Below are positions 15,458-23,167 of a stretch of 56,702 bases of DNA, piece after piece. The position numbers and the translations under genes are program-made. Positions within the stretch are counted from its first letter, which is position 1; each line of letters begins with the position of its first letter. Source of the DNA: a virus; UHGV virus genome UHGV-0213557. One strand, 5' to 3'. Below the pieces are notes generated by a model. The model did not search any database. It saw only the letters and a list, made by a program, of their open reading frames with translations, and had not been told where the DNA came from.

Positions 15458-16711
15458 TTACTTTAAGAAGCTTATTCCATTATTTTTAAGCTTATTATCT
15501 ATAGAATATCTAAGCGCAGCCATTGCATCATCCATAAACTCAACTGGTTCATCAAGATATAATCCAGTTCTTTCATCTTGTTTCCATTTCCATTGTTGTA
15601 TTTCTTTTATGGTATTAGTGCAACTAGGATGTACATGTATTCTTAATTGTTTCAAATAATCTATTTGAGCTTTAACACTTCCTGGTCCTTTTTTAACTCC
15701 TTTAGCTTTATATCCTGCACTCTTCCACATCTTAATTCTATCTGGTTCAGCACTATCACAGTACATAAATAGAGTCTTTTCTAAACCTATACTATTTGCA
15801 ATCTTTATGATTTCTGAGGTATCCATTTCATGTGCATATATTTCGTTACATATATATAACTCTCCATCCTTAAAGCCAATTCTAAGTACTACATTTGCAT
15901 GGTTAAATCCAAAGTCTTGTGATAACCTCATATTGTCAAAATACTCAGATTCTGTAGGAAATTCATGTATAACATAATTTTTAAGTATTGCTCCACCAGT
16001 TTCTCCCCATTCTCCAAGACCATAGACTTTGTACCCTTCTGGGTCTTGCTCTTTTCTCATTTGCATTCTTCTGTAGTAAGCCTCATCTATGAATCTATTT
16101 TGTAGATAAGTACTATGATGAGTAAATATATCATCATTTTTATAGTCAAAATACTTTCTTTTTATCCAATGAGTAGCTGAGACTGGATTAAATGTAAATG
16201 TCATTTGATAGTATAGGTTAGGATTAGTTAAAATACCTCTTAAACGGTCATCTAGTATGTCTATGTCACTTTCCATAAGTTCTGTAGCTTCTTCACACCA
16301 AACCCATGTTAATTTTCCTTTCGAGAAGTTAATTGATTTTAATTTTTCTCTTTGTTTTGCATCATTAACTCCTCTGAAAATTATAGAGTTACCAGTAACT
16401 TTACTCTTAATTTCTAAAGGATTTAAAGTAGTTTTCCAATACTTATCAGCTTGTTTACCATAAATACGATTTATAGCTCCTGTAAGCTCTGCATACGTTG
16501 AATACTTATGTGTAGCTTCTGACTTTCTAACTACTAATAGATTAGCTCCTTGATACTTCTTATCTCCTAACTTTAGTATATAGTCTTGTGCTACATTAAC
16601 AGATTTTCCACTCCCTGCTGAACCTTTCATTGCTCTGTATCTTTTTTTAGTAAAATTGGCTTCCTTGAAATCTGGATTAAAATCTATTCTAACTATCATT
16701 TCTATCACCAT
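15458..16711 (-). CDS. Terminase large subunit
   Basis: Walker A GSAGSGKS; 417 aa. Confidence 0.88.
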
Positions 16712-17372
16712 AATCTACACTTATTTTCAACTCATCATCTCCAATATCATCTTTACTTAGGTTATCAACTTCACATTTCAACTTCTCAACTCTTGTTTTC
16801 TGCTCCTCTGTAGCCAAATTCCAATCCTTATGAATCATTTCATCATACTGTTTAATTAAACTTCTAAGTTCACTCATTGCTCTACTCTGTGCATTAAGAA
16901 AAGATGCTTGCCTATCCCATGCAAATTGAAATTCATACTCTATCTTCTCACCATTTTCTGTGCTTTCATATTTCTTTAATTCCTTAATCATTTCTTCCTT
17001 GTCTTTAACATACATTATCTTTTGTGCTCTTATTATTGCTGCATATTGTATTGTTATCTGTTCCCAAAGAATATCAAATTTATCTTTATCCTTTATCTCA
17101 TTAATTAAGTCTTGGGTTTCTTCAGGTAAGTATTTTGAGAAGAAACCAAATTTTTCAGCATTCTTATTTCCAGGAGGACCAGTGGCATTTTTATTACCTA
17201 TGGGTGCACCTCTTTTATTTTTAGGTGCACCCTTCTTTTTCTCATTAGCCCAATTGTATCTTTTTATCCATGACTTTAAAGTATTTAAACTAATGTCATA
17301 CTTTGCTGATATTTCCTTTTGTTTCATACCTTTTAGGTAATCTTGTTTTACTTTTTCTTTCACATCTTGCAC
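16689..17372 (-). CDS. Terminase small subunit (N-terminal HTH)
   Basis: ..[24 protein letters not shown]..; overlaps the TerL start. Confidence 0.65.
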
Positions 17373-17404
17373 ACCACCACCTCGTTTGTTTGTCGTTTTG
17401 GGAA

Positions 17405-17432
17405 TAAAAAAAGAACTCGTTTGGAGTTCTCA
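17405..17432 (-). terminator. Rho-independent terminator between the nuclease cassette and terS (AGAACTC caaac GAGTTCT + T7 on the minus strand)
   Basis: Perfect 7-bp stem followed by a T-run. Confidence 0.6.
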
Positions 17433-18200
17433 GTTTACAATATCATATCTATGATTGATTCTTACTTTAATATTGTTATATTCAACTTCGGTTATTAAAC
17501 CCAACATTTTCAAAGATTCTATATTTTCATTTAAACAGTCTATAAATCCAAGTTCACTTTCTAATAATCTTAATTCTCCTCCAGCAAATTCCATCTCATC
17601 TATTAATGCTTGCATTTTACATTTTATCATAGTCAGAAGATTATACCTTTTATACTTTAATTTCGTTATTTCATCTACTGTAAACGATATTATTGGCATC
17701 TTATCTGATAAATATAATTTTCTTCTTTTTCCTTCAGCATATTGCCACCCCTTACCTGTCAATCCATTTAAAGAAATAAATATGCCCAATCCCGCATTAT
17801 TTTTATTGCATATTTCTGCTAGTTTAGATACCATTCCTACATCCACTTTTCTACTTTTCCAGTTTTTACATTCACATACTATTTTTGATTTTATATTACA
17901 TAAGAATGGTATTGGTATGTTGTCATTAAACTTAACAAAAACATCTAGCTCATTATCTGTTGTAGACTTATTTACAGATATATCACTTAATATTGTAAAT
18001 CTAGACATTATAAATCTTACTAATTGTTCTAAAATTTTTCCTTTCTCATGATTTTTAGATTTATTCCATTCCTTAGATAATTCTATTTCTTTTATATAAT
18101 TAGAGAATTCGTCTAATAGCATACTGTCATCATAAAAAGGCTCCCAAATTAAATTATCATCACATATGCTTAGATATTCTTTTAAGGTATCTAGACTCAC
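17430..18200 (-). CDS. Mrr-cat-like PD-(D/E)xK restriction-endonuclease-fold protein (256 aa)
   Basis: GKILEQLVRFIMSRF ... NELDVFVKF ... IVCECKNWKSRKVDVGMVSKLAEI ... GLGIFISLNGLTGKG. Confidence 0.6.
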   Translation of the reverse strand: MSLDTLKEYLSICDDNLIWEPFYDDSMLLDEFSNYIKEIELSKEWNKSKNHEKGKILEQLVRFIMSRFTILSDISVNKSTTDNELDVFVKFNDNIPIPFLCNIKSKIVCECKNWKSRKVDVGMVSKLAEICNKNNAGLGIFISLNGLTGKGWQYAEGKRRKLYLSDKMPIISFTVDEITKLKYKRYNLLTMIKCKMQALIDEMEFAGGELRLLESELGFIDCLNENIESLKMLGLITEVEYNNIKVRINHRYDIVN

Positions 18201-18204
18201 TGTA

Positions 18205-18591
18205 TCACTTCTCCAATCTTCTAAAGCCTATTTTTGTATCTTCAAAGTTGTATTTATAACCACATCCACATATTGGGCATTCTTGTCCTTTTGAAAAAGC
18301 ATTGAATTCTTTTATCGAAGTGAAGTATTTATAGTGACCTATTTCATTTTCATATACGCTATCTGGATTAGAACATTCAACAACAATAAAAAATTCTAAT
18401 TCATTTTCTTTAACTAAAAATTCAAGAACTCTTGTAGCCTCTAAAAGTGTAACTTTAGTTTTCCTGGCCAGCAATCTTGGTGTAATGATATCACTCTTCA
18501 TTAATTTCTCTAATTCTTCTATTATAGATTTTGCTTTACTCTGATTTCCTAAAAGTATACTTATATTCTCCAACTTTTCGTATAACATCAT
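18205..18591 (-). CDS. Hypothetical small protein with a C-terminal CPICGC motif
   Basis: ORF track; overlaps both neighbours, operon-like. Confidence 0.35.
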   Translation of the reverse strand: MMLYEKLENISILLGNQSKAKSIIEELEKLMKSDIITPRLLARKTKVTLLEATRVLEFLVKENELEFFIVVECSNPDSVYENEIGHYKYFTSIKEFNAFSKGQECPICGCGYKYNFEDTKIGFRRLEK

Positions 18592-19723
18592 AAATCACCC
18601 TCTCTTCTATAAATTTAGAAGTGTCTGTTCTTATTAAATATAATTCTTTATCTAAGACTTCAATTAAAAATCTGGATAAAGTTCCATTGAATGATTTCAT
18701 GACACCTAAATTCTTGACATCCTCATTGTTTCTAGATGTCTTGGCTATAGCATGTCCCTTTCCTGATTTTAGGGTTGCTGTTTTAGACCCAACTCTACAG
18801 TATGAATTTACTCCATCACCATTTTGCACAAAAGTACTGTATTGATTTTCATCCTCTACCACACCAAATTCGTCTATTAGAATATTCTCATAGAGTATTC
18901 CCACTCCCTCTTTGAAATTTTCTATTATAGCCTTATCAGTTATTCCAGAAGCAATAGCTATCTTTTTTGCGAATTCATCTATTTTATCAATATTTTCTTC
19001 ATATTTTTTGTTTATCTCAGGATTATTATGAGCACTGCCTTCCTCAGCAAGCTCATATGTAGCATCATATATCCAATCATTGTATTTTTCTATTTGTATA
19101 TTATAAGTAGTTAACAAATCTTCTAATTTTGATACATAATATTTTGCTATTTCTGAGAAATCTCTTGCTTTAGCCTCTATATTATCTATGCTTTTTATAC
19201 CTACAGTATGTGGTATAGAAACTATTATTTGTTTCAAACTTAAGTCTAGAAATAAAGTTGCAAAATAAAAAGTTTTTTCTAATCCAGATTCTATATTCCC
19301 ATTCTCATTTTCATTTTTACAGCTAATTAAAGCTGGAGAAATAAATCTTATAATCAATCTTTTGTTTATGACATCATTTTTTTTATATATGACCTTAGTT
19401 TCTTCTAAATCACTAGTATCAATCTCCAATAAATTTTCACTTACTATATCTTCTACTATGTTTTTTAAATCTTCCAATTCCAAGTCAGAATCATTGTAAT
19501 TAAAAACATAATAATTATTATGACCATCTATTGTAAAGATTGATATCCATTCCTTAAAATAATCTAGTTTTTCTCCATCATTTTGTATTATGTTTATCAA
19601 GCTATTTATAGCAGTTTCTTTTTTTCGTTTATTAATTCCCCAATTTTCAAAATCTTTAAGGTGTTTCATTTGTACCATTTGTAATATATTCTTTATGTTC
19701 TTTAGATTCTTTTCATTTAACAA
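18536..19723 (-). CDS. Hypothetical 395-aa protein, first gene of the cassette
   Basis: ORF track; no domain recognised. Confidence 0.35.
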   Translation of the reverse strand: MLNEKNLKNIKNILQMVQMKHLKDFENWGINKRKKETAINSLINIIQNDGEKLDYFKEWISIFTIDGHNNYYVFNYNDSDLELEDLKNIVEDIVSENLLEIDTSDLEETKVIYKKNDVINKRLIIRFISPALISCKNENENGNIESGLEKTFYFATLFLDLSLKQIIVSIPHTVGIKSIDNIEAKARDFSEIAKYYVSKLEDLLTTYNIQIEKYNDWIYDATYELAEEGSAHNNPEINKKYEENIDKIDEFAKKIAIASGITDKAIIENFKEGVGILYENILIDEFGVVEDENQYSTFVQNGDGVNSYCRVGSKTATLKSGKGHAIAKTSRNNEDVKNLGVMKSFNGTLSRFLIEVLDKELYLIRTDTSKFIEERVIYDVIRKVGEYKYTFRKSE

Positions 19724-19877
19724 ATTTATAATCCCCCTCTATTTATATATCTTTATGTAATTTATATTATCATATTTGTACATCATTTTAGCAATAAATA
19801 TTATTATCTACATTAATTATTAAAAAAAGACTTAGAATTTAATCTAAGCCTTTTTTTGGGGATACATATTATATTTA

Positions 19878-19955
19878 AGGGAGCAAGTTTTAGGAATCGA
19901 ACCTAAGATTACACACCAGTCCTTGCAAATTGAGTGAGGTTACCAAGCCCCACTC
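19878..19955 (-). other. tRNA-like element (T-arm GGTTCGATTCC on the minus strand); could not be folded by eye
   Basis: ggaatcgaacc at ~19892-19902; second T-arm-like motif (GTAAGTTCAATTCTTAC) at ~20030-20046. Confidence 0.2.
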
Positions 19956-20211
19956 TTTTAGACATTTGAATTAAATTCCGTTTTAATCCAGCATATCTAC
20001 ATATAGTGTATTAATAAGTTTGAACATAGTAAGAATTGAACTTACAGCATCCTCATGCCCTGCCTAGTTTGTTCATATAAGCTAGGCGAATCCCTTAACC
20101 TAGCCCACATATATTTAGTTTTGAGAGAGAAATATTCATTTCCACAATACTATTATCTCACATTTTAAATTGTAAAATCGGCAGAAAAGCGGCAATAAAA
20201 AGACCTAGAAT

Positions 20212-20436
20212 TTAATCTAGGTCTTTCATTATATTATTTAATTTTCCATATTCTCTTTCCATTGCTTCAATAGTTACTACCCAATCACGACCAAACTTTT
20301 TACAATCAATATTTTCAACTAATTTGCCTGTCGCAACTGCTTTTCTAAGTGTAGAATCTTTCAAATCCCATAATTTTGTTGCTTCTGCAAAGCTATAAAT
20401 ACCTTCAAATCGATTCATAAAATACCTCCTAATCAT
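20212..20436 (-). CDS. Small DNA-binding (HTH) protein
   Basis: 74 aa, ..ATKLWDLKDSTLRKAVATGKL..; terminator hairpin at 20196-20226. Confidence 0.35.
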   Translation of the reverse strand: MIRRYFMNRFEGIYSFAEATKLWDLKDSTLRKAVATGKLVENIDCKKFGRDWVVTIEAMEREYGKLNNIMKDLD

Positions 20437-20839: not shown

Positions 20840-21340
20840 CTATAAATCTAACATCTTAAATAATGGTTCTTGCTCTATTAATGCTTTTTTACCAAATAAG
20901 GCTATTGATATTGAACTAATGGCTTGATTAGCTCTTTCTCTTAATTGTCTTTCTTCTAAGTATACTTTATCAACTATTAAACTCCATTCTAAGCCTTCAA
21001 TATACCTATACCTTATAATTTGTTTATGTATAGGTTTTAAATTACTTATGGATACATCTATTGTATATTTTAGTGCTTCCATTTCATATAATTCTATCTG
21101 CTTTTCTATTATCTTTTCTTCAAGATTAATTAACTCATTTTCAACTTGATTACTTATTGAATTAGTCTTACTTATGGGAATGCTGTCATAGCTTAAACCT
21201 TGCATAAAATCACCTAAATGGAACTCTTTGAGATTTTTTATTTGAAGTTTTAGACTTTCAATATTAATATGTAGTTGTTTGTAGTTCTCAAGGTGTTTTT
21301 TAGTTGCCATAAAAAACTCCTTTTTAACTTTACTTGCCAT
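20840..21340 (-). CDS. ArpU-family late transcriptional regulator (sigma-like)
   Basis: ..IIRYRYIEGLEWSLIVDKVYLEERQLRERANQAI.. Confidence 0.5.
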   Translation of the reverse strand: MASKVKKEFFMATKKHLENYKQLHINIESLKLQIKNLKEFHLGDFMQGLSYDSIPISKTNSISNQVENELINLEEKIIEKQIELYEMEALKYTIDVSISNLKPIHKQIIRYRYIEGLEWSLIVDKVYLEERQLRERANQAISSISIALFGKKALIEQEPLFKMLDL

Positions 21341-22315: not shown

Positions 22316-23167
22316 CTAGTTAATATTTGATAAAATATGTGCTATCACATCTATTGTCCAACCATCACCTATGACATTTTGTGCTTGTCTTATACTCAAA
22401 CCTTTTGTATATCCAACTGGTAGCGTCTGCGCTAACTCTAATTCTCTAGTTGTTAAGTATCTGCAGAAAGACCCAAATTCTACTAAACCTGAATTACTAA
22501 ATCTATCTTGTTTTAATGTTACGCAGTTTATTTTGTCTTCATATGTTACATTCTTACAATTTCCATTTAAACCATTACCCCACATTTTTTCTCTACTTGG
22601 AGTTTTTTTAATTTCAAACTCTTTGCAATAATCAAAACTAGTATCTTTATAATCTTGAAAACTAATTTTTAAATCTTTAGGTTGTTGAACATTTAAAATA
22701 TTTGTCCAATATAATCTGTCTCTATTTTGATAACTAACTAAATTGCTATTTATCTTGATTGGTTCAACTCCTAACAATTGGCTTATCATGTTTTCATCTT
22801 TTTTGGGCATCACTACGTTTTCTAAAAGAAAATATTCTGGATTCAATTGTTTTAGAATTCTTATATATTCCCAAAACAAATTACTTTTATCTCCAGTTAA
22901 TCCATCCTGTATTTTATTAGCTATTAATCTTCCTTTACTTAAATTTTGGCATGGGCTTCCGCCAATAAGAATATCTACTTTAGGGATTTTACTTACATTT
23001 AGCTCTCTTACATCTCCAAGTTGTATTGTTTTTGGGTAATTATTCATTGCTACTTTAATCGCAATCTCTTTTATTTCACTTGCAAAATAATTTTCTACTT
23101 TTATTCTAGCTCTCTCAAAAGCAACTTGACCACAACTAATTCCATCGAATAGACTTAATACATTCAT
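22316..23167 (-). CDS. DNA (cytosine-5)-methyltransferase, orphan
   Basis: LSLFDGISCGQ (motif I), GGSPCQNLS (PC motif IV), ENV (motif VI). Confidence 0.85.
   Translation of the reverse strand: MNVLSLFDGISCGQVAFERARIKVENYFASEIKEIAIKVAMNNYPKTIQLGDVRELNVSKIPKVDILIGGSPCQNLSKGRLIANKIQDGLTGDKSNLFWEYIRILKQLNPEYFLLENVVMPKKDENMISQLLGVEPIKINSNLVSYQNRDRLYWTNILNVQQPKDLKISFQDYKDTSFDYCKEFEIKKTPSREKMWGNGLNGNCKNVTYEDKINCVTLKQDRFSNSGLVEFGSFCRYLTTRELELAQTLPVGYTKGLSIRQAQNVIGDGWTIDVIAHILSNIN

Follow-up and report, generated by a model that had tools for sequence, protein, structure and literature searches.

A candidate three-gene anti-phage cassette with a Mrr-type nuclease in the cargo slot of a phiC2-like Clostridioides difficile prophage

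In the virus genome UHGV-0213557, a cassette of three minus-strand genes, here termed A, B and C, is located just upstream of the terminase small subunit gene (terS). The genome was analysed as one stretch of 56,702 nucleotides (nt), which is called the window throughout the text; it is a phiC2-like Clostridioides difficile myophage/prophage presented in reverse orientation, with the late genes on the minus strand. The anatomy of the cassette, the strict linkage of its genes, its cargo position and the company that it keeps are together fitted best by a defence or exclusion module. With moderate confidence, and judging from context, we therefore regard the cassette as a self-contained three-protein anti-phage module, acting by superinfection exclusion or abortive infection and carried as prophage cargo. 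A more far-reaching proposal is put forward tentatively, namely that the cassette represents a previously unnamed three-component anti-phage family, in which a DNA sensor of the RexA/RdgC fold is wired via a winged-helix/zinc adaptor to a Mrr-type nuclease and not to a membrane channel, in which the large protein is exchangeable, and which would widely determine how susceptible C. difficile is to phages.

The cassette and its three proteins

The three open reading frames (ORFs) lie between a gene for a DUF722/sigma-like late regulator (20840-21340) and terS, and the elements that constitute the cassette are as follows.

Gene A: 18536-19723, minus strand, 395 amino acids (aa), TTG start preceded by AGAGGGGGA; predicted RdgC/CENP-L/N-fold protein, proposed DNA-binding sensor
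Gene B: 18205-18591, minus strand, 128 aa; putative N-terminal winged helix and C-terminal Cys-His-Cys-Cys site, proposed adaptor or DNA reader
Gene C: 17430-18200, minus strand, 256 aa, GTG start; putative Mrr-type PD-(D/E)xK nuclease with N- and C-terminal helical extensions, proposed effector
Upstream hairpin terminator: about 19822-19857, minus strand; A-run, 8-bp core stem GGCUUAGA/UCUAAGUC and T-run; right-hand insertion junction
Downstream intrinsic terminator: 17404-17431, minus strand; 8-bp stem, 5-nt loop and T-run; left-hand insertion junction inside
Candidate promoter-like site TTGCTA-17-GATAAT: 19766-19794, minus strand, between the upstream hairpin and gene A; 9/12 in a consensus scan

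All three co-oriented ORFs were found where the initial annotation of this DNA had placed them. It had described the genes as overlapping, which holds for A and B, sharing 56 nt, and not for B and C, which are 4 nt apart. The A/B overlap is conserved across the family (41-101 nt), and together with the tight B/C spacing it suggests coupled translation and formation of a complex. None of the three proteins contains a transmembrane segment, the maximal Kyte-Doolittle hydropathy over 19 residues being 1.51, 0.98 and 1.02 for A, B and C, respectively.

Protein C was matched to Pfam Mrr_cat (PF04471) over residues 58-164 with an E-value of 3.6e-7 and a score of 30.7 bits, above the gathering cutoff of 21 bits. 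The motifs GKILEQLV, ELDVFVKF and CECKNWK, by which a Mrr-cat fold with terminal extensions had been recognized initially, are all present. Residues K53, G54, E58, N83, D86, E110, K112 and N113 never vary, either among 18 close homologues or in a 19-sequence alignment reaching down to 23% identity. Because the catalytic residues are invariant and the Mrr_cat match exceeds its threshold, C appears from its sequence to be an active PD-(D/E)xK nuclease. Outside residues 58-164 no Pfam domain was detected and a fused Mrr_N winged helix is not present; the extensions are specific to the family and comprise W152, GKRRK at 157-161, IISF at 170-173 and a helical C-terminal tail.

The CPICGC motif reported earlier for the 128-aa protein B was confirmed, and to this a Cys-His-Cys-Cys site behind a winged helix can be added. 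In 24 homologues C73, N75, H86, C105 and C110 are invariant, and positions 18-67 of the B profile match winged-helix proteins, i.e., eS25 (E 9e-5), the MarR-type AdcR (0.003), ADAR1 Z-alpha (0.03) and, more weakly, TFIIE-alpha. From these comparisons we infer that B combines a winged helix with a small zinc site behind it.

Protein A had been described as lacking any recognizable domain. At the level of sequence this was borne out, since no match was found in Pfam, NCBIfam, PADLOC or the PDB sequences, and in PHROGs only unannotated families were hit, by near-exact matches to the query. A profile search of 1.84 billion representatives recovered only 32 relatives, mostly of about 400 aa. The description no longer stands at the level of predicted structure. 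An AlphaFold2 model built from a 26-sequence alignment reached pLDDT 89.3 and pTM 0.85 (it superseded an earlier model from 6 sequences with pLDDT 69.9), and its best structural match is RdgC, so that A, as modelled, carries the RdgC/CENP-L/N fold. The crystal structure of lambda RexA, a dimer that binds DNA non-specifically and belongs to a prophage exclusion system, was described with the same set of structural relatives, RdgC and CENP-L/N (PMC11077077). A has no Pfam RdgC match, comparison of the A family with Escherichia coli RdgC gave a hhalign probability of 0.2, and profile comparison with lambda RexA gave no signal; on the modelled structure A is thus a member of the RdgC/RexA fold class, and its sequence places it in neither the RdgC nor the RexA family. 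When the A model was compared by Foldseek with viral models, phage proteins named 'recombination-associated protein' or 'exonuclease' were retrieved, the matches being weak (TM about 0.3).

Insertion into a variable slot upstream of the packaging genes

Packaging and head genes of the window share about 93-97% DNA identity with those of phiC2, phiMMP03, phiMMP01, CDMH1 and phiCDKH02, all of which are devoid of the cassette. In megablast comparisons the homology to these five phages ends at window 17415-17416, inside the downstream terminator, while on the early side phiCDKH01 and phiCD24-1 are homologous down to 19822, where the upstream hairpin lies. As homology breaks at both hairpins, the cassette is a 2.4-kb insertion. 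None of the 50,697 phage records searched by tblastn contains it; A gave no match there and C found just relatives of 29-30% identity. The existence of close relatives without the cassette shows that it is not needed for phage growth, and its presence in one phage together with its absence from close relatives at the same site is a mark of a moron. The initial annotation had taken the three genes for moron-type cargo, none of them a canonical packaging or structural gene, and this view was upheld by the relatives; likewise, homologues of the three proteins did not turn out to be packaging accessories conserved in all related phages.

Other cargo occupies the equivalent slot in these relatives. 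In phiC2 it holds an acetyltransferase gene and small ORFs, in phiCDKH02 an antirepressor gene and two genes of no known function, and in CDMH1 (corresponding to window 17416-19821) a gene for a Bro-N protein followed by one for a 691-aa NACHT/NB-ARC STAND NTPase with a SNaCT5 C-terminal domain. The last protein, CDMH1 gp84 (locus L003, 5137-7212), is encoded directly upstream of terS and is annotated merely as 'putative signalling/NTPase protein'; bacterial NACHT proteins are reported to be anti-phage (bioRxiv 10.1101/2022.07.19.500537).

In C. difficile the cassette is common. Thousands of its assemblies contain the exact cassette proteins, and the exact A sequence was indexed for 3,051 blocks of an assembly collection. 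Wherever the exact A was located in C. difficile genomes it was in this slot (8/8 places examined), and in one genome (L055) the cassette is joined to a different set of terminase and portal genes. In another C. difficile genome, GCA_030494335.1, an Erm-type rRNA adenine methylase gene with an ErmC leader peptide (L053, 710-1655) stands upstream of the cassette in place of the ERF, DnaB, SSB and methylase genes, so that a macrolide-resistance gene is embedded beside the prophage region.

Both hairpins that the initial annotation had proposed as framing terminators (19824-19860 and 17405-17432) proved to be real when their folding energies were compared with those of shuffled sequences. The upstream one (about 19822-19857) folds with a dG of -16.4 kcal/mol (z -7.6), and equal folding was obtained in 0/200 shuffles; the downstream hairpin at 17411-17431 with its T-run has a dG of -10.7 (z -3.7) and was also picked up by a terminator scan, which returned 3 sites against 1.0 +/- 1.1 expected. 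The suggestion that the cassette forms its own transcription unit is only partly supported; its terminator boundaries stand, but the promoter-like site is of a kind found at chance level and late transcription would have to cross the cassette or start inside it. The latter follows from the distance between the downstream terminator and the start of terS, only about 32-38 nt (window 17373-17410), which leaves terS no room there for a promoter of its own. The sequence that the relatives have in common upstream of terS is also short, only about 43 nt, so that the late promoter of the packaging genes should be located upstream of or within the variable cargo, and transcription would have to pass the cargo slot by read-through or antitermination.

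Two features adjoining the cassette belong to this context.

terS: 16689-17372, minus strand; terminase small subunit, phrog_509 (E 4e-102)
Conserved non-coding stretch: 19858-20211, minus strand; upstream of the cassette, bracketed by two near-identical hairpins

The non-coding stretch, of about 350 nt, is 96-97% identical in phiCDKH01 and phiCD24-1, and the hairpins bracketing it lie at 20199-20226 and 19822-19857. In phiCDKH01 it sits just upstream of the packaging genes and ends about 30 nt before a small gene overlapping that of the terminase; no cassette intervenes. A tRNA-like region had been noted upstream of the cassette; neither ARAGORN at its normal threshold nor Rfam finds a tRNA there, and no Rfam family was matched. 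What the stretch does contain are T-arm-like motifs and two degenerate tRNA-like elements (anticodons act and tta), which ARAGORN reports only once the threshold is relaxed to 80%. A pac region is one possible identity of the stretch, an RNA derived from a tRNA another. At window 22316-23167 on the minus strand, some 2.5 kb upstream of the cassette, a 283-aa C5 cytosine DNA methyltransferase is encoded (PF00145 in the identical genes of loci L049-L056), a gene that becomes relevant if the nuclease is modification-dependent.

Distribution of the family in Bacillota

Further loci were collected from look-ups of the encoding contigs, from a scan of 185,579 species genomes (8 loci) and from a scan of IMG/VR (12 loci). 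The genome scans were keyed on the C alignment, the broad A alignment having no stretch conserved enough for a degenerate pattern. The eight loci in species genomes come from Sporosarcina, Halobacillus, Tumebacillus, Pontibacillus, Paenibacillus and a Bacillota metagenome-assembled genome. The order A-B-C is identical in every complete locus examined (28 distinct loci, Bacillota); the full triad is missing only from loci ended by a contig edge and from one locus with a fragment of C alone. Identity to the window proteins drops in parallel for the three components, from 64 to 19% for A, from 65 to 22% for B and from 66 to 30% for C. The family is rare, with the 32 relatives of A noted above; the wider C family amounts to 86 clusters in a set of 5.8 billion proteins, and wherever a source is named it belongs to Bacillota. 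On plasmids no C homologue was found.

The contexts of these loci are diverse, most of them being mobile or linked to genetic conflict, and the family rides as cargo in prophages, an ICE (integrative and conjugative element) and variable parts of chromosomes. The triad was found in a prophage region with resolvase, repressor, YqaJ and RecT genes, at the end of a prophage after amidase and SieB genes, in a Tn916-like ICE, adjoining an integrase gene, adjoining SmpB, after groESL in Pontibacillus, and on a Bacillus chromosome between LXG toxin/immunity cassettes. In a metagenomic lineage it lies beside a large serine recombinase gene, with a CAP12-PCTIR TIR gene downstream; this 151-aa TIR-domain gene (L005, 10853-11308; also L006-L008) follows the triad at a distance of about 550 nt on the large serine recombinase element.

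More distant triads are present in Staphylococcus phage Henu2 (gp12-14; L040, 3660-5669), between the endolysin and integrase genes, and in C. tetani prophages (phiCT9441A gp75-77; L041, 2448-4615), between the endolysin gene and attR, both being places where morons are carried. Gene sizes are alike in these triads, C is homologous (E 1e-32 for Henu2 and 1e-26 for C. tetani) and so is the winged-helix part of B (5e-8 and 5e-4). A third lineage is formed by gut metagenomic phages (L045-L048), where the triad is placed immediately upstream of terS-terL with a DDE transposase gene adjoining. In a common variant of these gut phages (L046) a segment of 2.58 kb, comprising the insertion sequence and most of the first gene, is missing, with an 8-bp overlap at the join and with B-C intact. 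The first protein of the Staphylococcus, C. tetani and gut-phage triads (A', about 350 aa) was considered as a homologue of A, and this assignment was unsupported (hmmsearch E about 6, hhalign probability 0.2). The combination of a B-C core with different large proteins points to a modular family whose large subunit can be exchanged. Neither the distant triads nor the divergent family members have a PADLOC match.

The defence reading and its alternatives

For the proposed anti-phage module we infer the roles of its components and the activation step as follows. The prophage would express A, B and C together. A would bind DNA, as its fold does in RdgC, RexA and CENP-L/N, and would sense foreign DNA as it enters or replicates, or else a DNA-protein intermediate. 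B, with its winged helix and zinc site, may link the sensor to the effector or add a DNA reading of its own, while C would be held inactive until the signal arrives and would then cut phage DNA, host DNA or both.

Several known systems share parts of this design. Lambda RexAB is likewise prophage-encoded cargo that is dispensable for phage growth, yet it acts with a membrane partner, RexB, whereas the cassette contains neither a RexB-like membrane partner nor a transmembrane-like segment and has instead a soluble nuclease as its putative effector and a third, winged-helix/zinc protein. Compared with RdgC, A has about 90 residues more and an additional helical region at its N-terminus; a nuclease and a small partner invariably accompany it, and it occurs in Bacillota only, mostly on mobile elements. 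C resembles the Mrr-family Type IV enzymes in its Mrr_cat PD-(D/E)xK domain with conserved E, D and ExK, and differs from them by the lack of a fused Mrr_N, by its own extensions and by the fact that in the family studied it never occurs without B. In Hachiman (HamA nuclease and HamB helicase) a PD-(D/E)xK nuclease is restrained by a DNA-sensing partner; in contrast, the cassette encodes no helicase and has no PADLOC match to this system. The same three-component logic, with a DNA-binding sensor complex controlling a PD-(D/E)xK-type nuclease, is represented by Lamassu (LmuA nuclease, LmuB SMC-like sensor and LmuC), for which DNA-end sensing and nuclease activation are described (PMC12663957). 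Unlike Lamassu, the cassette encodes no SMC/ABC protein or any other ATPase, has no PADLOC match to LmuA, LmuB or LmuC, and its sensor candidate is of another fold.

A number of observations weigh against the defence reading. In about one third of the chromosomal loci the neighbours are ordinary genes (groESL, DsbB, glyoxalase), a picture unlike that of classic defence islands. In agreement with the initial annotation, by which a novel system was suspected, the cassette is absent from PADLOC-DB v2.0.0, where only weak partial matches were obtained (C to PDC-S02, 1e-3; B to Cas10, 3e-3); this also means that there is no homology tie to a proven system. The literature on RdgC-like and Mrr-like defence modules and on C. 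difficile prophage defence gave no description of the cassette. A is acidic overall (pI about 5) and only a putative DNA binder, and the RdgC fold is used in recombination control too, so that A could serve the DNA metabolism of the element itself. The deletion variant of the gut phages, which keeps B-C, indicates that the large protein may be dispensable in that distant lineage. Finally, the promoter-like hexamers at 19794-19766 are at chance level, with 34 such sites against 32 expected in shuffled sequence.

Four other explanations were weighed against the anti-phage module. The one that stays closest to it is a split, modification-dependent Type IV (Mrr-like) restriction system, in which B would read modified bases and C would cut, with A loading the complex onto DNA or keeping it there; such a system would also be defensive, acting by direct restriction of modified DNA instead of sensing of infection. 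In Mrr-family enzymes a winged helix at the N-terminus reads modified bases, and the match of C to Mrr_cat, the name 'restriction endonuclease type IV Mrr' that sources give to its homologues, the resemblance of the B N-terminus to winged-helix domains (those of Z-alpha type included) and the lack of a methyltransferase inside the cassette, as expected for Type IV, all speak for such a system. We nevertheless regard it as unlikely, as C has no fused Mrr_N, no NTPase is encoded in the cassette, the winged-helix matches of B are weak and generic, and the phage's own C5 methyltransferase would cause self-targeting if m5C were the signal. Somewhat more improbable is an addiction module of the toxin-antitoxin (TA) kind, by which C as a toxin, neutralized by B and/or A with autoregulation, would stabilize the mobile element, phage defence being secondary. 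The small, DNA-binding-type B lies directly upstream of the nuclease gene at a spacing reminiscent of antitoxin-toxin pairs, and the cassette is nearly always carried by prophages, an ICE or islands; yet three components with a large conserved partner of 390-440 aa are unusual for type II TA systems, the widespread variant of the distant lineage lost the large gene with B-C intact, chromosomal sites without obvious mobile-element genes occur too, and neither Pfam nor PADLOC gave homology to known TA families.

An accessory role in DNA metabolism, where A would act as a RdgC-like recombination modulator and C as a structure-specific nuclease on the element's own replication or recombination intermediates, is given a lower probability again. 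The best structural match of A is a RecA modulator, the names of the viral Foldseek matches point in the same direction, and one locus adjoins ERCC4, YqaJ and RecT genes. However, those viral matches are weak, the closest relatives replicate without the cassette, which is bracketed by terminators outside the replication module, the related Staphylococcus and C. tetani triads occupy a lysis-integrase/att slot, and the Bacillus chromosomal copy is placed between LXG toxin cassettes. Close to refuted is the idea of a packaging accessory nuclease that works with the terminase, as do the HNH proteins encoded beside terS in some cos phages. It was prompted by position, the cassette being immediately upstream of terS and a distant B-C-containing triad being directly upstream of terS-terL in an unrelated phage group. 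It was rejected since the relatives with near-identical terS/terL DNA have no cassette and one C. difficile genome pairs the same cassette with a different terminase and portal set, by which a packaging role is excluded; moreover, an ICE, chromosomes and the lysis-integrase slot all harbour homologous triads.

If the cassette is indeed an anti-phage module, then nuclease-effector immunity on a mobile element, a general kind that is already known, would here be combined with a new sensor fold, and the RdgC/RexA fold would constitute a new type of sensor for the nuclease-effector class. The cassette would also connect the classic and poorly understood logic of Rex exclusion with an output in the form of a soluble nuclease, more amenable to biochemical dissection. 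Prophages of S. aureus and C. tetani combine a related B-C core with another large protein, which points to a modular family that has escaped the current defence catalogues. Given the presence of the exact proteins in thousands of C. difficile assemblies, the cassette could shape which therapeutic phages work on clinical C. difficile and which prophages coexist.

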